A DNA stretch of 64,000 nt from Gammaproteobacteria bacterium. Lineage in GTDB: Bacteria > Pseudomonadota > Gammaproteobacteria > GRL18. The stretch is from contig JADGDG010000001.1 of the NCBI GenBank assembly GCA_016744995.1, positions 38,011 through 102,010 on the forward strand, given 5' to 3'. Numbering within the stretch: position 1 is the first letter of the stretch; every line of letters starts with the position of its first letter. A program made the position numbers and the translations under genes. Shown piece by piece: positions 23,488 through 40,809 of this stretch. The notes below the pieces were generated by a model. That model had not been told where the DNA came from. It saw only the letters and a list, made by a program, of their open reading frames with translations, and made no database searches.

Positions 23488-24549
23488 ATGCATTTCTATG
23501 CATTAGGGGTTTCTATGTCTAAATATTATTCGCTATCTCAATTGGGTTGGCAAGCTTTTTTTCAACACCAACTCTCTCTAGAGGAATGGGAGTCATGCCA
23601 GGTGGCTCGCATTGAAGCACTTGAACGGTCGACTATTTTTTTCTTAACGACCAGCGGCACTTCTTCTTTACCCCTCTCATCTTCAATGCCAGCAATGACA
23701 GTCGGTGACTGGATATTACTTAATAATTCTGGTTTATATCTCCGTTGTTTAGATCGATTATCTTTGTTTTCACGAAAAGCTGCGGGCACCAAAGTGGCTA
23801 CCCAGCTTATAGCCGCCAATGTAGATACTGTATTTATTGTTTCATCCCTTAATAAAGACTTTAATCTCAATCGGGTTGAACGTTATTTATCACTAACAAA
23901 TGAAATCAGTGTAGATACAGTATTCGTTTTGACGAAAGAAGATTGTTGCAGCAATACTCATGAGTATATCAATCAAGTTCAACAATTATCGCCATTATTG
24001 AATGTTCTCGCTGTCAATAGCCTCAATAGCAGCAGTGTAAAGCAACTATCACCATGGTGTTGTGAAGGAAAAACAGTTGCCTTTTTAGGCTCTTCAGGTG
24101 TTGGTAAGTCTTCAATTATAAATACATTATTGGGTCATACCATTCAACAAACAAATTCAATTCGCGGAGATGATGATAAAGGTCGCCATACCACAACACA
24201 GCGCACCCTTCATCTATTACCCACTGGAGGAATTTTAATTGATACGCCAGGAATGCGAGAGTTAAAGTTATCTGACTGTGAGCAAGGAATTGAAGATACC
24301 TTCAGTGAAATATCTGAATATGCAAAATATTGTAAATTTTCTGACTGCCAACATGAGAATGAGCCAGGTTGTGCTGTAAAGAAAGCAATTGATTCAAATA
24401 AACTCGATAAGAGGCGATTGACTAACTATCGTAAGTTAATGCGTGAGCAAGAGTTTAATACTGCAACTATAGCTGAAAAACGTGCTCGAGAGAAAAAATT
24501 GGGCCGATATATTCGTGCTGTTCAGGCTGAATCAAAAATGAACAGGTAA
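23488..24549 (+). CDS. rsgA: Ribosome small-subunit-dependent GTPase A
   Basis: Circularly permuted GTPase motifs (G4 then LGSSGVGKSS, DTPG) and C-terminal zinc finger CKFSDCQHENEPGC. Confidence 0.75.
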   Translation: MHFYALGVSMSKYYSLSQLGWQAFFQHQLSLEEWESCQVARIEALERSTIFFLTTSGTSSLPLSSSMPAMTVGDWILLNNSGLYLRCLDRLSLFSRKAAGTKVATQLIAANVDTVFIVSSLNKDFNLNRVERYLSLTNEISVDTVFVLTKEDCCSNTHEYINQVQQLSPLLNVLAVNSLNSSSVKQLSPWCCEGKTVAFLGSSGVGKSSIINTLLGHTIQQTNSIRGDDDKGRHTTTQRTLHLLPTGGILIDTPGMRELKLSDCEQGIEDTFSEISEYAKYCKFSDCQHENEPGCAVKKAIDSNKLDKRRLTNYRKLMREQEFNTATIAEKRAREKKLGRYIRAVQAESKMNR

Positions 24550-24730
24550 CTTCAATACTATATTAAAGCAATGTGTTCATTATCATATCATAGTGAACAC
24601 ATGCACAACAAAAAAGCTTAGAAATATTTTATTTTTGTTGAAAACATTATACTTATTTCCCATCCAGCTCAATATTCAATCGCAAAAGTTCAACAATTCC
24701 TGGACTTCATAAAATTTTAATCAGCTAAAT

Positions 24731-25516
24731 CTAAGCATAAATATTTTTCAGTGTTTTTCTAAAAAACTGATCAACTAGTTCATTATCCAATTTCATTTGT
24801 TTAGCAGGTAATAGCAAAGCAAGACGCTTCATTTCATCCGAGAGGAAAGTTTCAATTCCTGGATTTCTATTAACCTGATCCGTTTCATTTGAATTTTGTT
24901 TTATCCTTAATAACTCATCAATATCAGCCAGCAATTCTCCTTCCGGTAAAAAAGCACTCAGCAAATCTGAGAATAACATGGGCGGTTGGTTTCCTTTTTC
25001 AATAACCCAGCGACAACACAAGATCGGTCGCAAAGAATACAAGTATTTTTTAATGTTAACTTGTTTGCACTGAGAGATGACTTTCAAGTGTGTTTTTGCC
25101 ATAGAAAGATAATGATGACAACTGGCCAGTGGTAAAAAAGCTTCTTGAGACAAGTCTCTTATAGGTTCTATCACATCCTTAACATCCAGATATTGTATTG
25201 GTGAAGCCAGCCACTCCATTAATGCCGGATTGGATTGCTTCAGCAAAGCCAAAGCCTTTTGAATATCCCAGCCATTGATATCAAGAAGACCATCAATTGG
25301 TAATTCAATCACATCTCGTTTATTAAACACACTGAGATACCAATCAGGCTCATGACAATATAAAAAGCGAACATCATAATCACTATCCTGTGATGGAAAA
25401 CCCCAGGCCCGACTTCCAGACTCAACTGCCAGGATAATTTTAATATGATATTCAGCTTCAATTTTCTCCAATTGTTCAATAATATCTCTCTCAATTGAAT
25501 ATTTGTTTATTCTCAT
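24731..25516 (-). CDS. Pol-beta superfamily minimal nucleotidyltransferase (GS-x3-G-x5-SDxDV) with C-terminal helical domain
   Basis: GSRAWGFPSQDSDYDV catalytic motif within the first 50 aa, followed by a ~200-aa helical domain. Immediately downstream of the HNH gene. Confidence 0.45.
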   Translation of the reverse strand: MRINKYSIERDIIEQLEKIEAEYHIKIILAVESGSRAWGFPSQDSDYDVRFLYCHEPDWYLSVFNKRDVIELPIDGLLDINGWDIQKALALLKQSNPALMEWLASPIQYLDVKDVIEPIRDLSQEAFLPLASCHHYLSMAKTHLKVISQCKQVNIKKYLYSLRPILCCRWVIEKGNQPPMLFSDLLSAFLPEGELLADIDELLRIKQNSNETDQVNRNPGIETFLSDEMKRLALLLPAKQMKLDNELVDQFFRKTLKNIYA

Positions 25517-25569
25517 TTTTCTCTACTCTGATAGAGCCATATTAAATTCATGGCTCAGATGTTTTTTAT

Positions 25570-26136
25570 TTACAATAACAGACTGCCTTTAGGAAATCTG
25601 TCTTGTAAAAATTTTTGTTGTTCAGCAACAATCCTTCGAGTATTTTTCAAATACAAAAACTCTGACCAGTTGGGTACAAAAGGAACTGCTAATAATAAAT
25701 GCCCCCACTCTTCCGGAGTTCGATTGCTCTTGTCATGATTGCAGGTACAGCAACTGGTTGCGCTGTTTAACCATGAGTCATTTCCTCCCCGGCTTTTAGG
25801 GATAATATGATCACGAGTCAAGTTTCGTGGTGAAAAGGTTTCACCACAATAGAGACACATATGTCCATCTCTTGCAAAAAGCCCTCTATTTGAAAATGGC
25901 GGCACGTACTCTTTTGATAAGCGATTGGGCATCACTCTTTCTTTGGTTAATACGATTGAACTGACGGTAACTTGTGAACGCAGGCCAGACATTCGGTTAT
26001 GACCACCTCGAAACATAAATTCTTCTTCACCCAAATTGGCAATTACCCGTTCACTGGCCATAAGGGTGATGGCTTGCCGGTAGTTCAACCAGGCTGAAGG
26101 ATTTCCAGCGATGTCTAATTGTAAGATTGGGATCAT
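25570..26136 (-). CDS. HNH endonuclease with N-terminal uncharacterised domain
   Basis: HNH core CLYCGE...RDHIIPKSRGG..SWLN...CCTCNHDKSNR. Confidence 0.6.
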   Translation of the reverse strand: MIPILQLDIAGNPSAWLNYRQAITLMASERVIANLGEEEFMFRGGHNRMSGLRSQVTVSSIVLTKERVMPNRLSKEYVPPFSNRGLFARDGHMCLYCGETFSPRNLTRDHIIPKSRGGNDSWLNSATSCCTCNHDKSNRTPEEWGHLLLAVPFVPNWSEFLYLKNTRRIVAEQQKFLQDRFPKGSLLL

Positions 26137-26180
26137 TGTTAATCCTCCCTGTTTTAGTCAATTTAGGTTTACATTTAATA

Positions 26181-26266
26181 TGGTAGGCAAGGTCAGATTC
26201 GAACTGACAAACCCTTTCGGGAAAATGGTTCTAAGCCATTCGCGTTTTCCATTTCGCCACTTGCCC
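26181..26266 (-). tRNA. tRNA-Leu (anticodon TAG), class II
   Basis: Manual fold gives a 7-bp acceptor, 3-bp D-stem, anticodon loop CTTAGAA, long variable arm, T-loop TTCGAAT and encoded CCA. Confidence 0.8.
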
Positions 26267-26273
26267 TTGAGTA

Positions 26274-26348
26274 TGGCTGCCGTGCCTGGGTACGATCCAG
26301 GAATAATGGAGTCAAAGTCCATTGTGCTGCCAATTACACCACACGGCA
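26274..26348 (-). tRNA. tRNA-Gln (anticodon TTG)
   Basis: Manual fold gives acceptor TGCCGTG/CACGGCA, anticodon loop CTTTGAC and CCA. The T-loop reads ATCGTAC (A54/T58 swap). Confidence 0.7.
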
Positions 26349-26389
26349 ATTGTTTGGTGTACATTAACGTTCTTTTTATTAGTTAATCT

Positions 26390-26465
26390 TGGGGTGAGTA
26401 ATCGGGTTCGAACCGATATCATCTGGATTCACAGTCCAGAGCTTTACCATTAAGCTATACTCACC
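26390..26465 (-). tRNA. tRNA-His (anticodon GTG) with G-1
   Basis: Extra 5' G pairing with C73. Anticodon loop CTGTGAA. T-loop TTCGAAC. CCA encoded. Confidence 0.85.
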
Positions 26466-26473
26466 ATAATTCT

Positions 26474-26641
26474 TTATATGCGTTGTGCATGAAATATGGC
26501 TGTCAAAATTTGTGGGTGATCACGATTGGGTGCCACGCCTTGACGTAAAAACCAGAGTGCATTCGGCTGACTTGCTGTTTTCCGGTTTTCAGGTATTTTC
26601 ATATCTTTGACTACTTTTTCAAATTTTTCATAGTGATTCAT
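26474..26641 (-). CDS. Hypothetical 55-aa protein nested between tRNA-His and tRNA-Lys
   Basis: ATG preceded by GGAGGT RBS at optimal spacing. Not in the supplied ORF track (<60 aa). No homology recognised. Confidence 0.3.
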   Translation of the reverse strand: MNHYEKFEKVVKDMKIPENRKTASQPNALWFLRQGVAPNRDHPQILTAIFHAQRI

Positions 26642-26662
26642 AATTAATACCTCCTTTTTAAT

Positions 26663-26738
26663 TGGTGCGTCGCCCCGGCTACGATCCGGGAACTTACTGG
26701 TTAAAAGCCAGTTACTCTGCCAGTTGAGTTAGCGACAC
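26663..26738 (-). tRNA. tRNA-Lys (anticodon TTT)
   Basis: Clean cloverleaf with anticodon loop CTTTTAA and CCA. The T-loop reads ATCGTAG (A54/T58 swap, as in tRNA-Gln). Confidence 0.7.
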
Positions 26739-26739
26739 A

Positions 26740-26825
26740 TGGCTCCAGGACTCAGATTCGAACTGAGATAGGGAATTGCTCCCTCCGGTTAACAGCCGGG
26801 TGCCTTGCCAATCGGCCATCCTGGA
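26740..26825 (-). tRNA. Atypical class-II (long variable arm) tRNA with Asn anticodon GTT
   Basis: 86 nt. U1-A72 and G73 as in tRNA-Asn. Anticodon loop CTGTTAA is identical to E. coli tRNA-Asn. It has a 3-bp D-stem and a 13-nt variable stem-loop typical of Ser/Leu/Tyr-class tRNAs. T-loop TTCGAAT. CCA encoded. Confidence 0.55.
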
Positions 26826-27299
26826 ATTTTTTTAAGCTTTTTGTGGTACTTGCAAAGTTGATATTTGCTTGTTAAGCCTCAATGCTTTAAAAGCAAGGAA
26901 ACAACCCCCTCAGTCCCCCTTCTAAAGAAGGGGGAAGCTAAGAGCAATTTTTCAAGTGCCTCTTTTAATTTAAATAAGACCTGAGATTATAGTCTTAAGC
27001 GAAAATTCTTTAGCCAGATTATGAACAGGTTCCACCCTATTGCTTCCCAACGTATCCACTGATACCCACAAATGGCTTATCAGTTAATTTTCATGACCGC
27101 CTTTTTAAGCTGGTGGCAATCCCAGCATACATAACAATACTCAGCACTTCGTTTTACCGTCTGAGCCGATCAAAGCTCATCTGTGTAACTTAGTACCAGA
27201 AACATCAGCTTGGGGCTTCTGTTTCACCTAAGTTCAGAGAACTGCTCAGGTTTAGGTCATTTTCTTGTTACGCTGAAGTACGTCTTTCCTTTTATTAAG

Positions 27300-27374
27300 T
27301 GGTTTTGTAAGGATGACTCGAACATCCAACCGATTGATTATAAATCAACTGCTCTACCATTGAGCTATTACAAC
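27300..27374 (-). tRNA. tRNA-like gene, anticodon TAT, G1xA72 mismatch (possible tRNA-Ile(UAU) or decayed CAT-family tRNA)
   Basis: Full 75-nt cloverleaf with encoded ACCA. D-arm and anticodon loop resemble the CAT-anticodon tRNA-like gene at 32982-33054 except for C34>T. Confidence 0.4.
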
Positions 27375-27890
27375 AATCTGCCAAGACGTGCGTACTTCGG
27401 TTGTTTTGAAACCTTTTGAGTCACAAAATGCAACACGCCTTATACCTTTCACATTCCTGCTACTAAGTGGCTTTTCAGGATGCCGGTTTTTATCCTTTAC
27501 CCTTCAAACTTCATTAGCGCCCTTGTCTGACGTCTCGGACTGACTAATGTACCCTTCATTCTTCATAGTGCAGTCAGTTGGCTCATGGCGATCACTGCCA
27601 GATGATCCTTCGGTGGTACTGTTTGCAGCCCCTCACCTTATAAACCATGCCGACCTTTTCTATTATCTCCAGGAGACCTGAAGACAAAGAGAACTGGGCT
27701 TGCGTAAACCGACCAGAGCAATATCACTAACCACTCTGGTGAGGGCATGCAGACATTCCCTCTTTTTTACTGTCACCAGTAATTATCGTTACCGATCTCA
27801 CGCAACCGGCTACTTTCCTGCAAGCAGGAAATTGTAAATAAGTTCTAAATTATTAAAGAGCCTGGGCATAACCTTGAGACACTTTTTTCA

Positions 27891-28007
27891 GGCAAAAAAA
27901 ACCCGGATGCCTGGTCAGCACATCCGGGGTTTTACAAATTTGTAATCACTCGGAAGGTGCTTTTTTGCAACCTTCCAGGACTTTTTGAAAGGTTATATTA
28001 TGTTGGA
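27891..28007. repeat. ~115-bp conserved element, copy A (direct repeat of 33243-33357)
   Basis: Shares GGCAAAAAAAACCCGGATGC...GGAAGGTGC-loop-GCAACCTTCC...TTTTTGAAAGGTTA with copy B in the same orientation. Confidence 0.6.
27894..27934. terminator. Bidirectional rho-independent terminator hairpin
   Basis: A8-CCCGGATG-loop-CATCCGGG-GTTTT. Perfect 8-bp GC-rich stem flanked by A- and T-runs. Confidence 0.5.
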
Positions 28008-28415
28008 TGGCTCATGAGAGTCAAACCTGGCTGACAAGGCTTACCTTGTCCAAACATTTTCTCTACTAATAAATGACACAACAATAGATTGGAAACTCTA
28101 TTGGTATTCATTTCATTTTGTATTGTACTTGTCTGATATTTCATAATTCTTTAAGTTTTGTGTTCTATTAAAAGTTTTTAAAAATATGATTTTAAATAAT
28201 GTATTCTGTAATATTTATTGCGTTGATGTTTTTGTATTCTAAACACCTGATTTTTAATGTCAACACTTTTTAGCATTATTCTTGCCATTAACAGCAAGAT
28301 TCTTTCTCTTCTATTTAATATATAGTGCAATCCTTACAAACAATAATTATGTTTATTTATAAAAACTGCACTAATGCAAACACAGAATGACTTTTCATTC
28401 AAATAAATGAGCCCA

Positions 28416-29612
28416 TCATCCCTTAACGCAAATGACTTGTCGCAGTGTATGTACCACTTCAACTAAGTCACTTTGATGTTCCATTACCTCATCAATATCT
28501 TTATAGGCGCCTGGAATTTCATCAATAACTCCCTTGTCTTTACGACACTCAACACCTTCTGTTTGTGCCTCCATATCACTTTCATTAAAATGTCGTTTTG
28601 CCTTACCACGACTCATGCGTCGACCAGCACCATGTGAACAGGAGCAGAATGATTCAGGGTTACCTTTACCACGAACAATATAGGACTTATCCCCCATACT
28701 ACCAGGAATGATCCCAAGTTTATCCTCACCGGCATCTATCGCTCCTTTACGAGTCAGATAAACTTCTTCACCAAAGTGGTTTTCCAGTGACACATAATTG
28801 TGGTGGCAATTAATCACTTCTTTGGTCACACCAAATTTACGCAGTTTCTTTCTCAGGGCATCAATAATCAAACGCATCATTTCACGTCGATTATTTAATG
28901 CATAATCCTGAGCCCAACTCACTGCTTCAATATAATGCTCAAAATGCTCAGCACCCTCACTAAAATAAGCAAGATCCTTATCAGGCAGATCCTGAATATG
29001 TCTGCCCATGTCTTTTTGTGCCAGGCGGATAAAATATTGACCAATGACATTACCCACACCACGACTACCAGAATGAAGCATTACCCAGACATCATCATTT
29101 TCATCGATACAAAGCTCAATAAAATGATTACCACCCCCAAGTGTGCCTAATTGGCGAACCCAGGTTTGGTAAGGCTTTTTTTGCATCTTTAATAATTTCG
29201 GATGCTTGCCTATAAGGCTGTCCAGCCCAACAGACAATGCTCGAATTGTCGATGCTCTGGCCTTGTCTGTCTTATGCATATTAAATCCCACTGGAATGGC
29301 ATCCTCAATGGTAAATCGTATGGCCCGTAAATTATCAGGCAAATCATTCGCCTTGATCGACAGGCGTAAAGCATTCATCCCACAGCCAATATCAACCCCG
29401 ACCGCAGCAGGTATAATTGCTTTGTGACAAGGAATTACTGAGCCCACAGTTGCCCCTTTACCATAATGTACATCTGGCATTGCTGCCACATGGTGATGAA
29501 TAAAAGGCAGTTGTGAAATATTCAGTAACTGCTGATAGGCTTCGTGTTCAATATCATCCGTGAAGATTTTTACTGGCACTTTGCCTTTTGTAATTTGTTT
29601 CTTAATTGGCAT
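28416..29612 (-). CDS. rtcB: RNA-splicing ligase RtcB
   Basis: RtcB metal-binding motifs (DVHYGKG, VGVDIGCGMN, HNYV, SHGAGRRMSRG). Confidence 0.8.
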   Translation of the reverse strand: MPIKKQITKGKVPVKIFTDDIEHEAYQQLLNISQLPFIHHHVAAMPDVHYGKGATVGSVIPCHKAIIPAAVGVDIGCGMNALRLSIKANDLPDNLRAIRFTIEDAIPVGFNMHKTDKARASTIRALSVGLDSLIGKHPKLLKMQKKPYQTWVRQLGTLGGGNHFIELCIDENDDVWVMLHSGSRGVGNVIGQYFIRLAQKDMGRHIQDLPDKDLAYFSEGAEHFEHYIEAVSWAQDYALNNRREMMRLIIDALRKKLRKFGVTKEVINCHHNYVSLENHFGEEVYLTRKGAIDAGEDKLGIIPGSMGDKSYIVRGKGNPESFCSCSHGAGRRMSRGKAKRHFNESDMEAQTEGVECRKDKGVIDEIPGAYKDIDEVMEHQSDLVEVVHTLRQVICVKG

Positions 29613-29622
29613 AATTTTTTAC

Positions 29623-29880
29623 CTATTCTCTATAATAAGAATGACGCTCAACGCCATCATATCGCCTGGTCTGTAGACAACAATTCTTGAAATCTGCGAC
29701 CAGAACCACAAACACAGGGGTCATTCCTACCCAGTTTTTCACAGAGTTCTTTGTTTCCATGTATTATTCTTGTGCCACGTTTGACCCTTGTTTCAGAGGG
29801 GTATCCTTTGCGGCGTTTACTGGTTATCTCAAAAGGAATATTCCTGATTGATTAAGTTATATTTACTCATGATGCACCTC
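29623..29880 (-). pseudogene. Frameshifted SEC-C zinc-ribbon motif ORF remnant
   Basis: One frame encodes ...[14 protein letters not shown]. The +1 frame continues [14 protein letters not shown] single extra A splits the CxCGSGxxFKNCC SEC-C motif. No start codon for the first frame. Confidence 0.3.
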
Positions 29881-29908
29881 CTGGTGATAGTATTTTCATT
29901 TATATTTT

Positions 29909-31366
29909 CTATGCATATCTGGCGATAGAAAATCCTTGTTTTCTGGCCCAGCGATAAATCACTTCCATTTCAATATCGCTGGCAAAACGATTTCGTAAAC
30001 CGCGTATCTGACAAATAGTTCTACTCAGTGTATGCAATTCAATAGTCAGTAATTTTTGCCTCATTTGAGCCTTATTTGCATAGAGACAATTCTGTAATTC
30101 CATTGTCCATATCGATGTCTTACCCGTAAAACAGGAGCGGGCATAAGATGCAACACAATGGCTCTGTTTTCGCCCTTCAGCAATCAATTCATTACTACTC
30201 AGTAATTCACTGATTGTCCATATTTTCATATTACAATTATTTTCACGGCCTTCTACATAATTATAATCAGCAAACTCAGATTTAACCCACTGTAAATCAC
30301 CACCTCGTAATTCCTTTCCCAATTGTCGATGCCAGATTTCAACCTGCTTCAATAAAGTGTCTGCTGTGCGCCCACGCATAGTGAAATTAGGTTGTGCAGG
30401 ACCTTCTTCTCTGGCAACTCCACGCTCAATAAACACCATACGATTTTCATATTTCTGATCCCATATATAATCCACAATAGGATTATATTGACTGACATCC
30501 AGCATTGGATTGTCAATAAAAAATCGCATCACACTTAAGTTAAATTCATTGTCAGTAAAGACTCGTGCCAACTGAGTTCCAGATACCCCGTCAGCTATTA
30601 TTTTATTTCCACCCAGAGCATGGATCTGTGCCCAACAAAAAGCGGCATTGATCTCATAATGTGCAGGTGCCTGAATAAAATAATGTGCCATTTTCTTAGT
30701 CATTCTGATTGGCAATGAATAAGCGGTACGGATATTTTTTCCCTCTCCAATATGGATATACCATTTCTGAGCATTTACATCGTCTTTATACCAGACTGAA
30801 TCCATAAAAGCAGGCACCTTATATTGGGCGAATAAATAACGTGCCAGAGCCGAAAACTGCCGGGCTGCGTTACGTGTTCCTGGCTGCCACTCCATAACCG
30901 GACGAATCCACCAGGTATAATATTTCACAAAACTAATGATCCCTTTCACATAATCTGTATGAGTGAGCAGCTTTGTATGTTCATCAAGATATAAAAAAAC
31001 ATCTCGTAACAATGATTTATTTTGTGTTGTTTTAAAACCATGACTGATTAGTTTTAAAACATCATTATTCAAATCTTTATATCGAATTTCATTTGCATAG
31101 ATTTTTTGTATCAGGTAATGTTTATTCTCTTCACGCTTATACTGTTTCATTCTTTGTAAGGCAAAGACTTGTTTATAACGTTGCAGTTCATGTTCCAGCT
31201 GAATCTGAGTTTTATTGATATTAGTACTAAAGCCTTGCTGCATACACCATTGCTGATATGCCTCTATGGTATGTAAATTTAAGGCACGAGCATAAGTCAG
31301 TATCGTGGTATTACGATCCTGCTTTTTTTTATTTAATTTATTTTTACGTGCCATTTTCTTTTCCAT
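29909..31366 (-). CDS. PcfJ-like domain protein (485 aa)
   Basis: C-terminal region with HCVASY..C..GKTSIW motif resembling PcfJ-like proteins of conjugative/mobile elements. Lys-rich N-terminus. Confidence 0.4.
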   Translation of the reverse strand: MEKKMARKNKLNKKKQDRNTTILTYARALNLHTIEAYQQWCMQQGFSTNINKTQIQLEHELQRYKQVFALQRMKQYKREENKHYLIQKIYANEIRYKDLNNDVLKLISHGFKTTQNKSLLRDVFLYLDEHTKLLTHTDYVKGIISFVKYYTWWIRPVMEWQPGTRNAARQFSALARYLFAQYKVPAFMDSVWYKDDVNAQKWYIHIGEGKNIRTAYSLPIRMTKKMAHYFIQAPAHYEINAAFCWAQIHALGGNKIIADGVSGTQLARVFTDNEFNLSVMRFFIDNPMLDVSQYNPIVDYIWDQKYENRMVFIERGVAREEGPAQPNFTMRGRTADTLLKQVEIWHRQLGKELRGGDLQWVKSEFADYNYVEGRENNCNMKIWTISELLSSNELIAEGRKQSHCVASYARSCFTGKTSIWTMELQNCLYANKAQMRQKLLTIELHTLSRTICQIRGLRNRFASDIEMEVIYRWARKQGFSIARYA

Positions 31367-31423
31367 TAATTAATTCAGGTCTAAATATTTTTAAACCTGA
31401 ATTAATCCCTATACATCAATTTA

Positions 31424-32578
31424 TTAATCCGCATTCACTTTGATTCGGACTGTATCTTTTAGAATACCTTCCAAACCACCGAATACAGTTAATTTGTCAA
31501 TTTTTTCAGTGACTTTTTCCAGAACTTCCAATTCTTTCAAACGCATCAAAGTCGGGTTGTCATCCATCAAACGTGCAGTGTTCAACAGAGAACGTGTTGC
31601 CGCTGTTTCTTCACGTCGTTTGATCACGTTGGCCTGTGCTACTTTTTCTGCCGCCACTACCTGGTTCAATATATCTTTCATTTCACCGGGTAGAATGACA
31701 TCTTTCACACCGACACTTCGCACTTCAATTCCAAACTGTGTAATTTTTTTATGTACTAATTCAAAAATTACTGCATCCATTTCATTCTTGCTTCCTAACA
31801 AAGAATCTAAAGTACGTACACCCACAACCTGACGCAAAGCAAACTGGAGCTCACGGTAAATATAGTCTGTGATATTCAGCAACTTGCTTCGAGCAGTTAC
31901 TGGCTCAGTGATCTGGTAATGTGCAGACAAGTTAATACGCAAGCTGACTTTATCTTTAGTCAGGATCTCCTGACCTTGAACTTCCATCACTTGCAAACGT
32001 AATTCAACCTGTTCAACTTTCACTGTACGGTTAAACTTCCAGTAAGCATGTATTCCAGGTTTTAACTGTTGTACTAACTTACCATTAACAATTAACAGTC
32101 CGATATGATCATCAGATACTTCACAGGCATATACTGAATTAACCACTTCACGTGACATTGAAGTCATACGAGCATTGCTAATCAAACCAACCAGTTTTTC
32201 AGGTATGGTAAAATCCTGCTCAATATCCAGCACTTCAATTTTCACATCAACTGGATCTTTCCAGTACAGTTTTCGAGTACCAGGGGATAGAACACCGCTT
32301 AACTGACCATTTTTATAAACCAGTCCCACCTTGTGCTCACCCAAATCGATAAACTGAAAATACTTATCCACTAATTCTCGGTTTTCTTTTACCAGCACAT
32401 CTAAGTACGGGTAATTAAATTCCGGCACTGTCAAGTCATGAACCTCAATCATCACTCGATTTAATAAATTGAATTGATGATAGATGCCCGGTTCAAGGAT
32501 CTTGGCAATGCTGCGATCTTTTATGTACACACCACGTTCATGTTGTGCAATCACAATACGTTTCAATCCGAACATCAT
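31424..32578 (-). CDS. SPFH/band-7 (stomatin/prohibitin-like, slipin) family protein
   Basis: Central SPFH core (VDVKIEVLDI...AVIFELV...GIEVRSVGVKDVILPGE) and coiled-coil C-terminus. No NfeD partner adjacent. Confidence 0.7.
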   Translation of the reverse strand: MMFGLKRIVIAQHERGVYIKDRSIAKILEPGIYHQFNLLNRVMIEVHDLTVPEFNYPYLDVLVKENRELVDKYFQFIDLGEHKVGLVYKNGQLSGVLSPGTRKLYWKDPVDVKIEVLDIEQDFTIPEKLVGLISNARMTSMSREVVNSVYACEVSDDHIGLLIVNGKLVQQLKPGIHAYWKFNRTVKVEQVELRLQVMEVQGQEILTKDKVSLRINLSAHYQITEPVTARSKLLNITDYIYRELQFALRQVVGVRTLDSLLGSKNEMDAVIFELVHKKITQFGIEVRSVGVKDVILPGEMKDILNQVVAAEKVAQANVIKRREETAATRSLLNTARLMDDNPTLMRLKELEVLEKVTEKIDKLTVFGGLEGILKDTVRIKVNAD

Positions 32579-32894
32579 TACTACTCCTTTTTTAACTTCT
32601 AAATAACTAAATATGAAAAATTCTCCACACGCTCATTGCGGGGAATAATATTAAGCTGTCATAAGTTTTAAGTGACAACAGGTTTAGTTTTAATTTCCAT
32701 GACGGTTTAAGCAATCAGCCATTGAAAAATAACATTCAACCTGTCTGTCTAATTAATAACCTTTAAAACTACTGACAGATAATTATTACACCGCAGGCAA
32801 TCAGCATGCTGTCACATAAAATGTGCATCACTCACCTGATGTACAATCCAGATCAGCCAATTCCATTTATGTCACTGGAGTATTTTCCTTTTTA

Positions 32895-32945
32895 GGTGGT
32901 ATTATCACCCGTATGCGGAGTCGAACCGCGTGGCTTTCGCCATTA
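32895..32945 (-). pseudogene. tRNA 3'-fragment (T-arm GCGGTTCGACTCCGC plus downstream acceptor-like segment)
   Basis: Canonical T-arm without a matching 5' half. Confidence 0.35.
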
Positions 32946-32981
32946 CCAATCACAGCCATTATTTTATCAATAGGAGCTGTT

Positions 32982-33054
32982 GAGAAAGAGTGGGAGTTGA
33001 ACCCACGCCAGACCAATTATGAGTTGGTTGCTCTACCCACTGAGCTATCTTCCA
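32982..33054 (-). tRNA. tRNA-like gene, anticodon CAT (Met/Ile2 family), U1xU72 mismatch, no encoded CCA
   Basis: Good D-arm, anticodon arm (ACCAA-CTCATAA-TTGGT) and T-arm (GTGGG-TTCAACT-CCCAC). The acceptor stem is unpaired at 1:72. Confidence 0.4.
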
Positions 33055-33242
33055 CTAGGCAATTGACTATTTACGGTTTTGTATACACCTTGCAATTTCA
33101 GCCTCAGTGCACAGGTCAGGCATACTGAGCCTGAACCGCTAAACCAATAAATATTTTCAAGTGCTTCTGAATTGCATGTCCTTAATTCAAGAAATAAAAC
33201 ACACAATCGCAATTCTTATTACTTACTTCTAATTAAAAAAAA

Positions 33243-33357
33243 GGCAAAAAAAACCCCGGATGCTTAATACGCACCCAGGGTTCTACTGTTCAGTATTTCC
33301 AGGAAGGTGCCTATTTCAGCAACCTTCCACACATTTTTGAAAGGTTACATCATCACA
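33243..33357. repeat. ~115-bp conserved element, copy B
   Basis: See copy A. The second hairpin GGAAGGT-loop-ACCTTCC followed by TTTTTGAAAGGTTA is conserved. The first hairpin is degenerate in this copy. Confidence 0.6.
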
Positions 33358-33691
33358 TAACTATTTTTTTCAGCTTCAAATGAAGGCAAAAAAACGCTTG
33401 CGAGTTCATTTGTATACTGCCTATTTTGTGTGTTAGTCAGATGTATCATAATTTTCCGTATCTCTTTCAAAAAGTTTAAATAATTTTTTAAAGCAGTCTT
33501 TTAAATGAACATGACTTGCTTTAATGATGGCTATTCTATACCTATATTTTTCAATGTCAACAATAAATGGCAAGTTTCTTGCCCTTTATTGGCAATTATC
33601 TTTCTTTTTATTTTTAAAAGTTTATTTTCATTTTATTTCAATCAGTTATATAATTACTCAATTCTAGACAATTTTATTTTTAGGTATTGCC

Positions 33692-34300
33692 ATGAGTCGA
33701 AAAATCACAACTAACGAACATAAAAAAATTGTCGGCGAACGGATCCGACAAGCCCGGCAGATGGCTGGATTTAATACCATTGCATCACTGACTGAATGCT
33801 TTCCTGATTGGAGTGAGCGACGTCTGGGTAACTATGAAAATGGTACTTCCCTTCCCAACCCATTAGATATTTTACGTATTTCAAAAGAAACAAAAACCAG
33901 CCCTTGCTGGATCACCTTTGGCATTGGCAGTATCCGTTCTTCTGACAGAGACTTACAGGCTATCCGGTATCAAAATTTTTCTCATCTGTATGAAAAAATG
34001 AATAAGTCGGAACAATTAGAGCTGAGAAAGGCAATTAAGTTAAAACCCAAAGAAGTAAATCATCATCTGGACAACCCTTATTTCAAAATCACAGAGACAA
34101 TGTGTTATAAAATTGAGCGTCACTTGAAAAAATCTAAAGGCTGGATGGAGCAACAACATGTTGAAATGGATGGTTTATGTGATTTCTTTCCTGAGGATGT
34201 GAAAGAATTATTATCAATTTATTCTAATCTGGATAGCGATGCTCGTGCCATGTTATTAGATATATCTCGTACGGTGAAAACTTATAAAAAGAAAGATTAA
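33692..34300 (+). CDS. XRE-family HTH transcriptional regulator with C-terminal unknown domain
   Basis: N-terminal HTH (IGERIRQARQMAGFNTIASL...). Confidence 0.45.
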   Translation: MSRKITTNEHKKIVGERIRQARQMAGFNTIASLTECFPDWSERRLGNYENGTSLPNPLDILRISKETKTSPCWITFGIGSIRSSDRDLQAIRYQNFSHLYEKMNKSEQLELRKAIKLKPKEVNHHLDNPYFKITETMCYKIERHLKKSKGWMEQQHVEMDGLCDFFPEDVKELLSIYSNLDSDARAMLLDISRTVKTYKKKD

Positions 34301-34370
34301 CATCATTCTTTAAGTACCTTTTAGGTGAAGTCATTCACCTGATTTTGATGACCATCCTTAACTCACGAGT

Positions 34371-35279
34371 TTACCGGCTAATTATATTCAGTATTTCTTC
34401 CAATTTTCTAACCGCTTCTGTTCCCTCATCAGCACTAGCTGATACACAACCATCAAGCGAACCATAATGGTGCTCAAGGCAATTCAATAGCAGCTGCCTG
34501 ATAGCGCGTTCATTCGGTTTTTGTTGTAACAAGCTGGTCAGATAAAGTTCTTCTAAATGCTTCTCTTTGTTATTGAAGAATTCTCTTAACTGAATTTTAG
34601 TCCATTCACCCCGACGAATTGATTTGAGCTGTTCACGATTTCTTGTTAAATCCAGATCACCTTCATTCAGGATCATTTCCACTTCAGAAATTAATCGGAC
34701 AACATGATAGGCAAACTTTGTTGAATAACCATGCTTATCATAATCAGCTCTTCGTTCAGTTCCTTCCTGCGGCACTGAATGTTCTGCTTTATGCAATTGT
34801 GCATAGCTATAACCTTTGAATTTATGCCATGCACCTTTATGTAAAAATAGTTTTCGATTTTCTCTGACCAGCTCTCCAACCTGAGTGGAATATAAAATGC
34901 AACGCCTGGGTACAAAAAGTGAATCAATCATGTTGGGATTGTTTTCCATACACAATTGAAAATATTTGACGATGGAATAAATTGTAAAATCATATTCCTG
35001 TGCTTTTTTCCCTGATGAGGATGTATCAAAAACATGATGCTGCTGATATTGTTCAAATCGTTTAGCCTGAGTACCAAAGCCAACAATTTCTCCTCTCGTA
35101 TGTGGAAAAACATCTTCTCGATTTGGAATACAAAAGCCATAAACATCCATATCAGAGCTATCATTAGAAACACCATAGGCCACCGAGCCCATCACAACTT
35201 CCATTTGAATGGCATTGGCTAGAAATTTAGGTGGTTTAATGAGTTTTTTCTTAACTAATTGTTGTATTGTGCTACTCAA
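34371..35279 (-). CDS. Pol-beta superfamily minimal nucleotidyltransferase, paralog of the 24731-25516 gene
   Basis: MGSVAYGVSNDSSDMDV (GS-x3-G-x5-SDxDV) near the N-terminus plus a C-terminal helical domain. Same architecture as the other NTase. Confidence 0.45.
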   Translation of the reverse strand: MSSTIQQLVKKKLIKPPKFLANAIQMEVVMGSVAYGVSNDSSDMDVYGFCIPNREDVFPHTRGEIVGFGTQAKRFEQYQQHHVFDTSSSGKKAQEYDFTIYSIVKYFQLCMENNPNMIDSLFVPRRCILYSTQVGELVRENRKLFLHKGAWHKFKGYSYAQLHKAEHSVPQEGTERRADYDKHGYSTKFAYHVVRLISEVEMILNEGDLDLTRNREQLKSIRRGEWTKIQLREFFNNKEKHLEELYLTSLLQQKPNERAIRQLLLNCLEHHYGSLDGCVSASADEGTEAVRKLEEILNIISR

Positions 35280-35499
35280 AAAAACATTCCTTTTAATATT
35301 TCCTTAGAGAATTTATTTTATAGACAGATTCACTGGGCCAGTAAAAATATCAGTTTAAGTCGTGCTATTTAATCAACCTTAAAAGAAATATTGTAATTGT
35401 AAGCATGATTAAAAAATGATCCTCTTTCACCAAAACTTATAACCTTTTTTAATAACTGCTAAGACTTAGCGAGCAATCCATGACTTTATTTAGACATTT

Positions 35500-36186
35500 T
35501 TAATTTTCATACCATTGCATCGGTTCTGGCAATTTCATTGCTGAATACTCAAGGTGAATGATCCTGCGATGCTTTGGTTCTATTGCTTTTCTTGATGAGT
35601 GAAAAAGTAAAGGATTCATAAGAAGAATATCACCTGGGTTTGCATTGCAGTTAATTATTTCTGAATTTTCTACAATGTCCATTAATTTGCCTGATTTTAC
35701 TCTGCCATCACTATGAGAACCAGAGACAACTCTAAGAACACCATTTTTCTCATTTGTAGGATCAAGATGTATTCTCAGGGTTAAAATTGATGCAAGATAT
35801 TTTTCTGGTGGCTCTACATGAGGCACGCCTTGTTTTTCTCTCCATTTGTTAAAACCCGGCATTTTTATTTTTTCTTTAACAACTATTGAAGTATCCTGAT
35901 GCCAGGCGACATTCCAGTTTGCTTCTGGAACTTTATCAAAAAAAACTGAGCGAATTGGTTTTGCCTGCTCACCCAGAACCTCTTTTGCTATCTGTAGAAG
36001 CAGTAATGACATCGCTAAATTTTTTACATATGGCACTTTATCCATTAAGTTACGAATGCCGTAATTATTGATTTCGTTATTAAATACACTCATTTCTTTA
36101 ATTAACGAAGCAACTTCATTTTCACTAAGGGCATTCTGAATTAAATGGTATCCATTTTGTTCATATTGTAAATTCATCAGCAGCAT
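35500..36186 (-). CDS. PhyH-family Fe(II)/2-oxoglutarate dioxygenase
   Basis: WHQD..., HxD...H facial-triad spacing and a C-terminal RxS motif typical of phytanoyl-CoA dioxygenase-like proteins. Confidence 0.55.
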   Translation of the reverse strand: MLLMNLQYEQNGYHLIQNALSENEVASLIKEMSVFNNEINNYGIRNLMDKVPYVKNLAMSLLLLQIAKEVLGEQAKPIRSVFFDKVPEANWNVAWHQDTSIVVKEKIKMPGFNKWREKQGVPHVEPPEKYLASILTLRIHLDPTNEKNGVLRVVSGSHSDGRVKSGKLMDIVENSEIINCNANPGDILLMNPLLFHSSRKAIEPKHRRIIHLEYSAMKLPEPMQWYEN

Positions 36187-36419
36187 CCAAGTTTATAATT
36201 TTTCCAGATTAGCCAAATACTCACGAGCGGTTTTCTTACCTCATTTCTAACTGACCACTGGGCAATTTCAATAATTTTCCGGTATAAATAGTAGCCTCAC
36301 CTTTTACTGATGAAGCGGTCAAAATAACTATACTACTACACTTCTCAAAATGATGGGAAATTTAGCAGCACAACAACAATTGAAAATAGTTTTAGATATT
36401 AATGAAAATAGTCTCTTAA

Positions 36420-37100
36420 TTACTCAATGGTGCTTATTTTGGATACTGAAATAATCTCTGAGCCATCCCAGATGTATTCGTAATGACAGCCCTGGTCAAT
36501 TTTATCGATGTATTTTGGCGTGAACAAAGCGTAGCAGTTAGCATAGTTGTTTCTTACTGAACCGTACCAGATGCCTGAAGAACTTTCTTCTTTAACTTTT
36601 GCACCTAATTGTTGAGCGGCTGTATAGTCATCTGTATCATACCACCCACGGTCATCAATTAATGGGTCGGCGATATTAATCAGTTCTGCTGAAAAGGTGG
36701 TGCATAAAGTTCGCATGACAATTCTTTCATACTTAAAGCCCTCTACATTTTTTAAGTATTTTTCCTGATGGTATACCGTTTCAGTGATAGCCGTTTCTAT
36801 ATTTTCAGCAGCATAATAGATGCCATACCTACCATCAGAAAAGCGCGAGCCTTCTGAGCTGATGTGTGTGAAAGGTGCTATTGCCCAGTTACATCCGGGG
36901 ATATCAAAGGGTATTTCTTTAGCAGGCAACAGATTTAAGTTGCCTGCTTCATTTTGAACCCTGGGGTTAGTCATTGCCTGTATTTCATAGAGGGCCTCAA
37001 ATTCATCGGCATCAGCAACATCATCAAAGAGAGCAATGGGCGGAAATTTACTATTGATTAAGCGGTAACATACTTGCTTAGCAAATGTTGTTGTTACCAT
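36420..37100 (-). CDS. RES-domain toxin (MbcT/RES NAD+ phosphorylase family)
   Basis: R...E...S catalytic arrangement (GSRFSDGRYGIYYAAENIETAITE). Overlaps the upstream Xre-like antitoxin by 7 nt. Confidence 0.7.
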   Translation of the reverse strand: MVTTTFAKQVCYRLINSKFPPIALFDDVADADEFEALYEIQAMTNPRVQNEAGNLNLLPAKEIPFDIPGCNWAIAPFTHISSEGSRFSDGRYGIYYAAENIETAITETVYHQEKYLKNVEGFKYERIVMRTLCTTFSAELINIADPLIDDRGWYDTDDYTAAQQLGAKVKEESSSGIWYGSVRNNYANCYALFTPKYIDKIDQGCHYEYIWDGSEIISVSKISTIE

Positions 37101-37498
37101 TGACCGCCTCTTAAAGCAGTGATCTGATTATTGACTTCGTAAAGATTCGCAACACTTCCACTAGTCATTATATCCATTGGCGTTGCACCATTAAAGAAAT
37201 AGTTTGAATTAGGCATGCGAACAAAGCCATAGACATTATCTTTATTATCAAAAAGAATTCTTAGTGATGAATGAATGTTGAGCAAGTAACTGACTCTTTC
37301 CAGTAAGTCATGTGAGACTCTGGCTGAATAGGGATCACTTTGATATTTATGCAGCGTAGAACGACCTATCCCCAATAGAGCCATTTTCTCTTGTTCACTA
37401 CATTCCCACTTATCAAGAATATTCAAGGCTGTTTTTAATGCAATTTGCCTCTTATCTTTAGATTGATTGTTTGCTTGAGTTCTATTTTGTGTAGTCAT
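37094..37498 (-). CDS. Xre-like antitoxin (MbcA/ParS, DUF2384) of RES toxin
   Basis: C-terminal toxin-binding domain similarity. Positioned upstream of the RES gene in typical TA arrangement. Confidence 0.65.
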   Translation of the reverse strand: MTTQNRTQANNQSKDKRQIALKTALNILDKWECSEQEKMALLGIGRSTLHKYQSDPYSARVSHDLLERVSYLLNIHSSLRILFDNKDNVYGFVRMPNSNYFFNGATPMDIMTSGSVANLYEVNNQITALRGGQW

Positions 37499-37658
37499 AA
37501 CTATACCCTTTAATGTCCATATTAGTACAGAATACCTAGATTTGTCTATATATGGATGTAAATATTGTAAGAGTTATTGAGTACACAGGAAAAAGCCCGT
37601 ACTAAATGATTCGGTTCTTCAAATAAATGTTAATAGTTGTATTTTTTACCATGTACAC

Positions 37659-37691
37659 TATAATATCACGTACATTAATAATGAACACAAT
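37659..37691 (+). promoter_or_regulatory. Promoter/operator-like motif TATAAT-N7-GTACATTAATAATGAACA, directly upstream of the 37698 start codon
   Basis: Perfect -10 hexamer. An 18-bp core is repeated exactly at 39821-39838. Confidence 0.35.
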
Positions 37692-37697
37692 ATTATA

Positions 37698-38774
37698 ATG
37701 AACGAAAATCATAAACTGCCTGGAATTAAAAAAAATATATTAGAAGAAGCAATAGAAGCCGTTTATCAACAAACAGGTTTAAGACTTATCCTGCCTGATA
37801 ACAATGTAATTGAAGAATCTCACGATGAGATAACTATAATGATTGAGGGAAATTTTCACCTTCATTTTACAGCTAAGGTAAAACGATGGGCACAACAGGC
37901 TAATTTCGGAGCACTAGTTAATGAGATCCAGCAACTATCGACGAAAGGTATACTGGCTGCCGATTATGTAAATCCAAGAATGGCAGATAAGCTTCGTAAA
38001 CTAGACATACCTTTTATAGATACTGCTGGTAATGTATTTATCAATGAAAAACCAACCTATCTTTTTGTTAAAGGCATTAAAAACACCCACAAAACAGAGA
38101 TAAGCAATCAACCCAAAGAAACACAAACTCATGGCAGAGCATTCATGCCATCAGGGCTAAAAGTTGTTTATGCATTCATACAATCGCCCAAATTAATCGA
38201 TGCACCTTATAGAGAAATTGCAAATATTTCAGGTGTTGCACTAGGTACTGTTGGCTGGGTTATTAATGATCTGAAACTGGGGGGCTATTTAGTCGCATTT
38301 GATGAAAAAAAACGGAGATTAACAAACAAAAAACATCTATTAAATAAATGGGTTGATGCCTATTTAGAAAAATTACGCCCAAAATTGTTTTTAGGTAACT
38401 TTAGTGCTGAGGATGATAGTTGGTGGATGAAACTGGATAAAAATATAGTGGATTATGGTACGTTGTGGGGAGGGGAAATTGCAGCATCTAAACTCACAGG
38501 ATATATCAAACCAGAAAAAGTTATTCTTTATCGACCCAAAGAAGGCAATAATAAATTATTTGCCGATAATCGTTTCCGAAAAGATCCAAATGGGAATATT
38601 CAAGTATTTCAAGCTTTCTGGGACATAGATGAAAAACATATTTTAAATTCAAGTGGTCTTGTTGAACCATTAATTGTCTATGCCGATCTCCTGGCAACAG
38701 GTGATAGCAGGAATTTAGAAACAGCAAGGGTACTATATGATAAAGAACTCACTGGATTTATCCAGGAAGATTGA
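37698..38774 (+). CDS. AbiEi-like wHTH protein (putative antitoxin/regulator partner of downstream NTase)
   Basis: Internal winged-HTH-like segment (YREIANISGVALGTVGWVINDLKLGGYLV). 38-nt overlap with the downstream NTase gene. Confidence 0.3.
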   Translation: MNENHKLPGIKKNILEEAIEAVYQQTGLRLILPDNNVIEESHDEITIMIEGNFHLHFTAKVKRWAQQANFGALVNEIQQLSTKGILAADYVNPRMADKLRKLDIPFIDTAGNVFINEKPTYLFVKGIKNTHKTEISNQPKETQTHGRAFMPSGLKVVYAFIQSPKLIDAPYREIANISGVALGTVGWVINDLKLGGYLVAFDEKKRRLTNKKHLLNKWVDAYLEKLRPKLFLGNFSAEDDSWWMKLDKNIVDYGTLWGGEIAASKLTGYIKPEKVILYRPKEGNNKLFADNRFRKDPNGNIQVFQAFWDIDEKHILNSSGLVEPLIVYADLLATGDSRNLETARVLYDKELTGFIQED

Positions 38775-39588: not shown

Positions 39589-39809
39589 AATAATGACCAG
39601 ATATTTGAGTGCTCTCACTTATACCTCTCACACAAAATGTTCTGCGTAGAACATATAAAGCATAGAAGTCCAGTAGCACTTACAAAAATTACAAGGAATG
39701 GTCAGGATGATCTAAAAGATGGCAAATATGGTTTTAAATGTTTCGCGGCGAAACACTTATCAAGTAAAAGAGACTTTTTTGGCTGATCAATACTATTTTC
39801 TGTGTTCAT

Positions 39810-39842
39810 TATAATGTCAAGTACATTAATAATGAACAGAAT
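39810..39842 (+). repeat. Second copy of the TATAAT...GTACATTAATAATGAACA motif, with 10-bp inverted arms TGTTCATTAT/ATAATGAACA
   Basis: 18-bp exact match to the motif upstream of the AbiE-like cassette. Followed by a 25-codon ORF starting MNRIR (compare MNENH). Confidence 0.5.
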
Positions 39843-40770: not shown

Positions 40771-40809
40771 GGCAATAAAAAGCCCTATAACCAATTGAAT
40801 TATAGGGCT
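40771..40809 (-). terminator. Rho-independent terminator downstream of the minus-strand tRNA(CAT)
   Basis: Perfect 10-bp hairpin AGCCCTATAA-loop-TTATAGGGCT followed on the minus strand by TTTTATTG. Confidence 0.5.

Follow-up and report, generated by a model that had tools for sequence, protein, structure and literature searches.

Two consecutive leader units on the minus strand

The DNA analyzed here (hereafter referred to as the window) is a stretch of 64,000 nucleotides (nt) of contig JADGDG010000001.1, from an uncultured Gammaproteobacteria bacterium related to metagenome-assembled genomes of Thiotrichaceae. It is a piece of bacterial chromosome, encompassing rpoD, dnaG, tsaD, rsgA, a histidine kinase gene and other housekeeping genes, and it contains an accessory island without an integrase located between rsgA (23488-24549) and the transfer RNA (tRNA) gene that follows rpoD (tRNA at 40816-40892). 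Inside this island, a segment encoding RtcB, PcfJ-like and SPFH proteins lies between two copies of a repeated element, copy A (27891-28007) and copy B (33243-33357), which are the subject of this work. An earlier examination of the DNA letters alone (the sequence-only reading) had described these copies as ~115-bp direct repeats, each paired with a "CAT-family" tRNA-like gene, and had proposed that they constitute either a duplicated composite unit or a pair of sites resembling phage attachment (att) sites and delimiting an inserted module of ~5.3 kb.

Both copies were found where that reading had placed them, in the same orientation and 5.35 kb apart, and the sequence blocks it had quoted are common to the two. 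The GGAAGGT-loop-ACCTTCC hairpin that it had singled out is present in both. The 64-kb window contains exactly two instances of this hairpin and two of a 29-nt core pattern (TAACCTTTCAAAAA-N5-GGAAGGTTGC), with an expectation of 0.00 from 100 shuffles. A covariance model run over the full 64 kb likewise returned only copies A and B, with scores of 89 and 97 bits, covering 27891-27999 and 33243-33351, respectively. Pairwise alignment of the two copies, which the sequence-only reading had suggested, yielded ~73% identity over the 181-nt stretches aligned, with the conserved blocks contained within ~115 nt. Those blocks are real, but the proposed repeat length is not that of the true unit: similarity between A and B extends ~300 nt further upstream (in the minus-strand sense), up to an identical promoter, and each copy is a unit of ~430 nt made up of promoter, leader and terminator, of which the ~115-bp repeats are the 3' ends. 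The functional strand is identified by two stem positions at which the copy B terminator has G.U wobbles in place of the C-G and A-U of copy A: RNA from the opposite strand would carry C/A mismatches there, and the positions are paired in minus-strand RNA alone. On that same strand, a T-run follows a G+C-rich hairpin in both copies.

The promoters of the two units, located on the minus strand like all unit features described below, share their hexamers and spacing (TTGACA-16-TAGAAT) and run from 33560 to 33533 in unit B and from 28263 to 28236 in unit A; matching 11 of 12 consensus positions, they are jointly the two best sigma-70 promoter matches in the region. In unit B, a leader open reading frame (ORF) of 34 amino acids (33345-33449; MIHLTNTQNRQYTNELASVFLPSFEAEKNSYVMM) ends in a TAA stop codon (33345-33347) that constitutes the start of segment 1, the first of a series of short segments with alternative pairing partners. 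The leader ORF of unit A (27998-28144) encodes 48 amino acids (MKYQTSTIQNEMNTNRVSNLLLCHLLVEKMFGQGKPCQPGLTLMSHPT), and 2 nt separate its TAA stop codon (27998-28000) from segment 1; compared with the aligned stop in the rest of the family, this stop lies 6 nt further upstream. Given the size of the ribosome footprint, a ribosome at this stop codon would still cover approximately the first five bases of segment 1. Segment 1 (UAACCUUUC) maps to 33339-33347 in unit B and 27987-27995 in unit A, and its helix with segment 2 (helix 1:2) has a folding free energy (dG) of -10.1 (z-score -3.0) in unit B and of -10.3 (z-score -4.2) in unit A. Segment 2 (GGAAGGUUGC; 33319-33328 and 27967-27976) can take either segment 1 or segment 3 as its partner. 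Segment 3 (GCACCUUCC; 33302-33310 and 27952-27960) pairs with segment 2 (helix 2:3; dG -14.7 in unit B and -13.9 in unit A) or with the terminator arm (helix 3:4; dG -13.4 with 8 pairs in unit B, and -13.5 with 10 pairs in unit A). A small hairpin, P3 (33284-33295 in unit B, 27932-27945 in unit A), precedes the intrinsic terminator, the two together spanning 33246-33295 and 27894-27945. The terminator itself, a G+C-rich hairpin followed by eight T residues, lies between the leader ORF and the genes downstream in both units (33246-33280 and 27894-27928). In unit B, its arms (33271-33280 and 33254-33263) and T-run (33246-33253) were recovered by a terminator scan as 14 pairs plus T-run, with a dG of -21.1, and in unit A its arms map to 27921-27928 and 27902-27909 and its T-run to 27894-27901, with a dG of -16.1.

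We interpret the repeats, with considerable confidence, as the 3' parts of ribosome-dependent transcription attenuators that act on the minus strand and head two consecutive, co-oriented operons of the accessory island. They are paralogous copies within a conserved family that heads modules of tRNA arrays, GOLLD RNA and RNA-repair genes, and it is because they head two operons that they seem to bracket the RtcB-PcfJ-SPFH segment, each paired with a tRNA. The notion of a duplicated composite unit was thus right in spirit, with promoter, leader ORF and attenuator as the duplicated parts and RNA genes following each copy. Apart from a run of regulatory codons, all the structural features that define an attenuator can be predicted in these units. 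In the proposed mechanism, the sigma-70 promoter would drive a leader of ~300 nt carrying a short ORF with its stop codon in or just before segment 1. In the nascent RNA, segment 1 could pair with segment 2, segment 2 with segment 3, or segment 3 with the 5' arm of the terminator (segment 4), which would otherwise pair with segment 5 to form the terminator. A ribosome standing at the leader stop codon would mask segment 1, leading to helix 2:3 and the terminator, so that only a short leader RNA would be made. A ribosome delayed before approximately the last four codons, or never loaded, would instead allow helices 1:2 and 3:4 to form, and the polymerase would read on into tRNA-Met, SPFH, PcfJ and RtcB from unit B, and into GOLLD, the tRNA array, HNH and RlaP from unit A. 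The module would hence be switched on when translation is impaired, and this polarity is, on balance, the one that we favor.

An att-like pair, or a target duplication, bracketing a mobile 5.3-kb RtcB-PcfJ-SPFH module is hardly credible for these copies. Two copies in the same orientation, 5.35 kb apart and with tRNA genes adjoining, are what such a scenario would predict, and paired copies are also seen in a Thiotrichaceae metagenome-assembled genome (L030), where they stand ~315 nt apart with no such module between them. However, the two copies in the window share only ~73% identity, each is a full unit of promoter, ORF and attenuator, and no integrase is encoded between or beside them; its absence, already pointed out by the sequence-only reading, holds for all of the island's larger ORFs, which were scanned against Pfam. 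The comparison with relatives which that reading had asked for points the same way: a close relative (locus L025) retains the same RtcB-PcfJ-SPFH segment together with both copies, which have diverged in parallel. Across ~70 related loci the element is single or in tandem and never brackets a module, its typical form being a single copy at a fixed place beside a gene for a helix-turn-helix (HTH) protein, and the features that are conserved are those of a translated leader and of mutually exclusive RNA helices. The same grounds of fixed context and of leader and helix conservation led us to reject a dispersed repeat of the miniature inverted-repeat transposable element (MITE) or repetitive extragenic palindromic (REP) type, which the sequence-only reading had named as what could overturn its proposal: there are two copies in 64 kb, and the 80 loci examined show one fixed position relative to the HTH gene.

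Predicted leader translation and mutually exclusive helices

Six-frame translation of the A/B pair alone revealed no shared peptide, and the leader ORF became evident only when orthologues were added. In an alignment of 56 copies, the stop column contains a stop codon in 54 (TAG in 24, TAA in 19 and TGA in 11). The frame ending at this stop is open for a median of 70 codons, compared to 1 and 5 codons in the other two frames, and at least 40 open codons are found in 49 of the 56 copies, against none of the 56 in each of the other frames. All four third bases occur in the last codon, ACN, and the codon before it is invariably ATG. Most copies present a strong Shine-Dalgarno sequence (TGGAGA or CAGGAA) shortly upstream of the ATG start codon, and gene callers annotate the ORF in several contigs. 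The predicted peptides are mostly 50-67 residues long, with an N-terminal T-x-T/H and the recurring motifs QPG, NEQ and GMT-stop, and they match no known protein family in Pfam or NCBIfam. Comparison of the window with its close relative L025 is consistent with selection on the frame: in the copy A ORF, neither a 15-nt indel nor the replacement of TAA by TAG disturbs the frame, even though many residues differ, and the copy B ORFs, both 34 amino acids long, keep frame and stop with length differences near both ends. The leader is therefore predicted to be translated, or at least to be kept open.

The pairing potential of the RNA was assessed on the same alignment. Helix 1:2 brings together the stop codon plus CCUUUC(GC) on one strand and (GC)GGAAGGU on the other. 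In this helix 93.4% of alignment cells are paired, a value that none of 500 shuffles reached and that drops to 36-54% if the partner strand is displaced by 1 to 3 columns, and both partners vary at 8 of its 10 pairs. Segment 2 covaries with the stop codon itself, whose third base pairs with it as A-U in 29 copies and G-C in 24. Helix 2:3 is paired in 96.2% of cells, both partners varying at 5 of 9 pairs. For helix 3:4, formed by segment 3 with the 5' arm and loop of the terminator, support is limited to within-clade counts and energies: 82% of cells are paired in the 42 copies of the majority clade, versus 35-49% with the partner displaced by 1 to 3 positions. Two individual substitutions also fit this helix, a C to U change in segment 3 of L025 copy A that is matched by a G to A change in the terminator arm, and another C to U change matched by G to A in the second L030 copy (L030b).

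Mean dG values over the 56 copies are -12.0 for helix 1:2, -15.3 for 2:3, -12.8 for 3:4 (8-12 pairs to the arm) and -19.9 for 4:5, all of them below those of shuffled sequences. When the nascent transcript was folded up to the terminator loop without constraints, helices 1:2 and 3:4 were obtained in 46 of the 56 copies. Masking 14 nt from the stop codon yielded helix 2:3 and no pairing of segment 3 to the terminator arm in 44 of the 56, and both copies in the window flip their structure under masking, as predicted.

The selection on an open frame, the conserved motifs, the strong Shine-Dalgarno sequences and the annotation by gene callers would also suit genes for a small conserved protein of ~35-65 amino acids, in which the protein rather than the act of translation is functional and the element is merely the 3' untranslated region and terminator. 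We regard this as improbable. A plain terminator leaves unexplained both the two exclusive, covarying helices with the stop codon in their first strand and the covariation of the stop third base with segment 2; moreover, the peptide has changed rapidly among close relatives that preserve the frame and the stop, and no known protein family matches it. The peptide may nevertheless have a role in trans, in addition to attenuation.

An attenuator with a different logic was also considered, in which the C-terminal ..DLGMT-stop would act as a TnaC-like arrest peptide and a ligand or factor would prolong occupancy of the stop, raising termination, or in which Rho would intervene. The last codons are indeed strongly conserved, down to the synonymous third base of GGT (40 of 43), and the base after the stop is mostly C, a context of slow termination in Escherichia coli. 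Against this, nothing identifies a ligand, the strong intrinsic terminator makes Rho unnecessary, and the copies in the window lack the C-terminal motif (ending in ..VMM and ..HPT) while keeping the RNA switch. We give this logic little credence.

A further alternative is that the terminated leader (~290-340 nt), or an RNA of ~100 nt from a proximal promoter, constitutes a trans-acting small RNA (sRNA) with the conserved, single-stranded 5' block UAACCUUUCAAAAA as its seed. The hairpin-plus-terminator shape resembles that of Hfq-type sRNAs, attenuator-derived sRNAs such as rnTrpL are known, as far as the consulted part of that literature goes, and copy A does contain a promoter-like TTGACT-16-CATAAT just upstream (28024 to 27997). 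This proximal promoter, however, is unconserved and falls within a 45-nt stretch that copy B lacks, which led us to discard it as the source of a 100-nt sRNA, and the putative seed, which overlaps the conserved stop codon, shows covarying cis pairing with segment 2. An sRNA function is accordingly very improbable.

Several observations weigh against interpreting the units as ribosome-dependent attenuators. The alignment used (A6) was fitted to helices 2:3 and 4:5, although not to helix 1:2, which was absent from the model; the metagenomic sequences are mutually related, so that counts of copies are not counts of independent events. The columns of helix 3:4, although conserved, covary little, and an apparent covariation between the window lineage (AGCAC/GUGCU) and the majority (AUGCC/GGCAU) was dropped because the pairing register shifts by one. 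The leaders contain no run of one regulatory codon, the cognate-codon hallmark of attenuators, and the conservation of QPG, NEQ and GMT-stop could indicate that the peptide itself is functional or an arrest peptide. The copies in the window are in addition atypical of the family, with weak Shine-Dalgarno sequences, a copy A stop displaced 6 nt upstream, and a copy A promoter region without the CAAGAAACTTG palindrome described below. Finally, no upstream partner for segment 1 (a "segment 0", as in trp and his leaders) was found among the leaders (mean duplex z-score +0.7). This last result implies that the default without translation would be read-through, that is, ON, unlike in the classical trp and his attenuators, and hence that the attenuator would monitor whether translation works in general, and not how well one amino acid is supplied.

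A more specific version of the translation-sensing attenuator is that its leader ORF serves as a dedicated sensor of tRNA damage. Nucleases triggered by phages or toxins would cleave or deplete tRNAs, the ribosome would stall, and the attenuator would open to provide back-up tRNAs, RtcB/RlaP and GOLLD. The leaders contain, shortly before their last codons, a conserved polar stretch (NEQxKSY.SD) rich in codons with a middle A, which are read by Q34 and xm5s2U34 tRNAs, the usual targets of anticodon nucleases. The fraction of such codons at positions -15 to -4 is 0.48, versus 0.20 in the middle of the ORF (Wilcoxon p ~1e-6), an enrichment that would fit the sensing of particular tRNAs but is inseparable from selection for polarity, and the stretch is weak in the two copies of the window. 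We also tried to match leader codons to the tRNAs of the downstream arrays and rejected this approach: large arrays cover nearly all amino acids, and small ones gave no significant signal. We consider a dedicated damage sensor doubtful.

A conserved family, its divergent HTH gene and its cargo

Unit B is divergently adjacent to a gene (33692-34300, plus strand) encoding an XRE/DicA-like HTH regulator, with a weak match to Pfam HTH_3 and a weak DicA-like NCBIfam match below cut-off. We identified 45 homologues of this protein, which belong to uncultured Gammaproteobacteria and Thiotrichaceae wherever their source is named, and a metagenome scan with the HTH alignment provided the 80 loci mentioned above. 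A model of the element built from ten copies (R1) matches ~70 of these 80 HTH-linked loci, always on the opposite strand and ~300-450 nt from the HTH start. In L025, where the HTH protein is 92% identical, the gene order is the same as in the window. Other relatives present the HTH gene, the element, and then GOLLD and tRNAs, and yet others the HTH gene, the element, and then a tRNA array and HNH. A Thiotrichaceae metagenome-assembled genome (L017) is syntenic with copy B, with an HTH orthologue at 63% identity and two tandem elements on the opposite strand, one of which shows a compensatory change from U-A to C-G between segments 1 and 2. In the Thiotrichaceae genome L030, the two tandem attenuators (9193-9606, minus strand; ~315 nt apart start to start) head a ten-tRNA array inserted after rplQ, and the second follows a 61-amino-acid ORF with a good Shine-Dalgarno sequence.

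When one genome per species was scanned for ACCTTTCA..GGAAGGT..ACCTTCC, 22 matches were obtained, of which 13 in Alteromonadales (mostly Alteromonadaceae) and one in Marinomonas are histidine-operon leaders. Rfam searches of 26000-34000 with cmscan at E-values up to 1 returned GOLLD, tRNAs and one chance plastid match, and no leader or riboswitch family. No match was found by megablast of 26900-33800 against a phage collection, nor in three scans of IMG/VR with patterns of the element, indicating that the element is not detectably phage-borne.

Upstream of the -35 box of unit B lies the palindrome GGCAAGAAACTTGCC (33569-33583; core CAAGAAACTTG, 33571-33581). The general form CAAG-N(2-6)-CTTG, mostly as CAAGAAACTTG, is present in 47 of 55 related leaders; in nearly all of these, its first base is found 21 nt upstream of the first base of the -35 hexamer. 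The palindrome is a plausible, and likely, operator of the divergent HTH protein, which would probably add repression at the promoter. TTCTTG half-sites were also observed in the promoter spacer of leaders, and copy A presents a differently arranged palindrome, TCTTGC-N8-GCAAGA, at 28280-28299.

All genes attributed here to the two operons are encoded on the minus strand. Behind unit B there is first a conserved, structured non-coding stretch (32579-33243) that contains tRNA-Met(CAU) (32981-33055) and ends at the start of the SPFH gene (31424-32578), followed by the PcfJ-like (29909-31366) and RtcB (28416-29612) genes, all three assigned with Pfam. The cargo of unit A starts with GOLLD. Its 3' domain (26978-27441) matches RF02032 with 154 bits, against a gathering score of 150 (E-value 3e-41, model positions 1-416), and a presumed 5' domain occupies 27442-27890, an extent derived from similarity to L025 and to another related locus, L026. 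A tRNA-Ile(UAU) with an encoded CCA end is embedded in the GOLLD variable linker (27300-27374). Downstream, the operon comprises an array of five tRNA genes (Asn, Lys, His, Gln and Leu; 26181-26825), HNH (25570-26136) and RlaP (24731-25516). The pairing of each repeat with a "CAT-family" tRNA consequently stands for copy B, with tRNA-Met(CAT) 188 nt downstream, but for copy A the gene is tRNA-Ile(TAT), 517 nt downstream. Similarly, the non-Watson-Crick 1:72 pair that had been attributed to both applies to tRNA-Ile, which has G.A at 1:72; tRNA-Met has instead a T.T near the top of the acceptor stem.

This linkage to RNA genes extends to the family. Downstream sequence of 900 nt or more was available for 36 elements, and 32 of these are followed by co-directional tRNA genes, with up to 23-24 genes per array. 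Homologues of HNH, RtcB and SPFH lie beyond the tRNAs, and RtcB and SPFH homologues are downstream of the attenuator in many related loci. Taken without the formal length threshold of PMC8421152, these are horizontally spread long tRNA arrays (L-arrays), the one in the window being short, with its five tRNAs and the one embedded in GOLLD. Behind the attenuator, GOLLD is present in the window and in the loci L025 and L026, in the last of which it scores 137 bits, below the gathering score. In the window, the RtcB, HNH, SPFH and RlaP genes adjoin the tRNA array.

The non-coding stretch at 32579-33243 recurs elsewhere: 22 loci have the part preceding the tRNA, and 9 have the part following it. 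In at least eight of the loci compared with the tRNA scan, its homologues adjoin a tRNA whose anticodon varies (Ile, Lys, Tyr, Thr), and an SPFH homologue lies downstream in several of these loci. RNAalifold on eight homologues of the 3' part of the stretch predicts 91 pairs, 45 of them with compensatory changes, in a structure that includes a T-arm-like hairpin and a long-range closing helix. Rfam 15 has no family for the stretch, which we propose as a candidate undescribed large structured RNA or 5' untranslated region, GOLLD-like in carrying a tRNA. A metagenome contig 99.9% identical to the window (L001) joins window position 33085 to ~31474, and is thereby devoid of tRNA-Met, of the structured RNA and of most of SPFH. 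The 107 nt preceding this junction (L001 1-107, window 33085-33191) are only 94% identical, and the junction may reflect either a deletion variant in the population or an assembly chimera.

Beyond copy B, the divergent HTH gene is followed by a second RlaP-like gene and two toxin-antitoxin pairs. The island as a whole (24700-40900) reaches up to the tRNA(CAT) after rpoD, in the ileX position, and carries two RlaP genes, RtcB, HNH, a PhyH-like dioxygenase, and RES-Xre and AbiE pairs. A PADLOC search for defense systems returned only generic HNH and HTH matches. A 52-nt direct repeat (37640-37691 and 39791-39842; 81% identity) with TATAAT-like boxes inside brackets the AbiEi/AbiEii pair (37698-39588). 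Outside the island, the window contains an intergenic tandem repeat of 42 nt in perfect register (22991-23074; 98%) and, at 17764-19916, long coding tandem repeats of 18 nt (Ser/Glu/Pro-rich) in ORFs around 18.5-20 kb.

Comparison with known regulatory systems

Long supernumerary tRNA arrays and GOLLD are widespread, and their regulation and purpose are poorly understood. A conserved switch, readable from sequence, that ties their transcription to the state of translation would provide a testable hypothesis, namely that these RNAs are made when ribosomes stall. Our literature search on tRNA arrays, GOLLD or RtcB in connection with a leader peptide, an upstream ORF (uORF) or attenuation brought up no description of the element, with subscription journals thinly covered and an earlier description possible. 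As far as the searched literature shows, this would be the first leader-peptide attenuator governing tRNA genes and a large ornate RNA.

The closest structural likeness is to the amino-acid leader attenuators (trp, his, thr, leu and pheA; His_leader in Rfam). Common to both are an ORF close to the promoter and equipped with a Shine-Dalgarno sequence, a stop abutting the first segment, an antiterminator opposed to an intrinsic terminator, and the position of the ribosome as the presumed decider. The resemblance extends to sequence in the his leaders of Alteromonadaceae and Marinomonas (L004-L023), which share ACCTTTCAGG, CTGGAAGGT, ACCTTCC and the placement of TAA before segment 1 with our element; in these, a His-rich peptide is followed by TAA directly before CCTTTCAGG, then by the GGAAGGT/ACCTTCC hairpin and the terminator, in the same layout. 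The element differs from the amino-acid leaders in the absence of a cognate-codon run and of the upstream segment that gives "superattenuation". Its leader is long (mostly ~50-67 codons; 34 and 48 in the window), with conserved peptide motifs, and its cargo consists of tRNA genes, GOLLD and RNA-repair genes instead of biosynthetic enzymes.

In its proposed logic, with stalling anywhere in the leader relieving termination, the element resembles uORF-based attenuators that sense translation stress, such as those of whiB7 in mycobacteria, toiL/topAI in E. coli, and vmlR and bmrCD in Bacillus (PMC12121999; 10.1101/2023.06.02.543512; PMC9226507). As far as the consulted portions of these reports indicate, they differ from it in sequence, hosts and cargo, some of them are Rho-based, and none is reported for tRNA arrays or a large ornate RNA.

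GOLLD loci usually belong to phages or prophages and lie beside tRNA islands, an embedded tRNA and an adjoining tRNA array being described for GOLLD in general, and the RNA forms nanocages of no known function (PMC12286853). The locus described here shares the embedded tRNA and the neighboring tRNA array, and differs in being chromosomal and in lying directly behind a putative leader-peptide attenuator, an arrangement for which the searched literature offered no precedent. If the sensing of tRNA damage were true, GOLLD would belong to a response to translation damage rather than to phage lysis as such.

In cargo, the nearest counterpart is found in Anabaena, where translational stress jointly induces a tRNA L-array, rtcB and the genes for an HNH protein, a slipin and a ribosome-associated GTPase. 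Control is exerted by TrcR, a ribbon-helix-helix repressor whose binding sites are direct repeats at the promoter, and neither of the two papers (PMC8421152; PMC10272220) contains the words attenuator, leader or terminator. As a further parallel, the rsgA gene neighboring the island corresponds to the ribosome-associated GTPase gene of the TrcR regulon. The Anabaena gene set matches the one found behind or next to the attenuators described here, but control there relies on a promoter repressor, versus an XRE-type HTH neighbor and a predicted leader-ORF-coupled RNA switch here, which suggests that marine Gammaproteobacteria may reach the end served by the TrcR regulon through a different mechanism.

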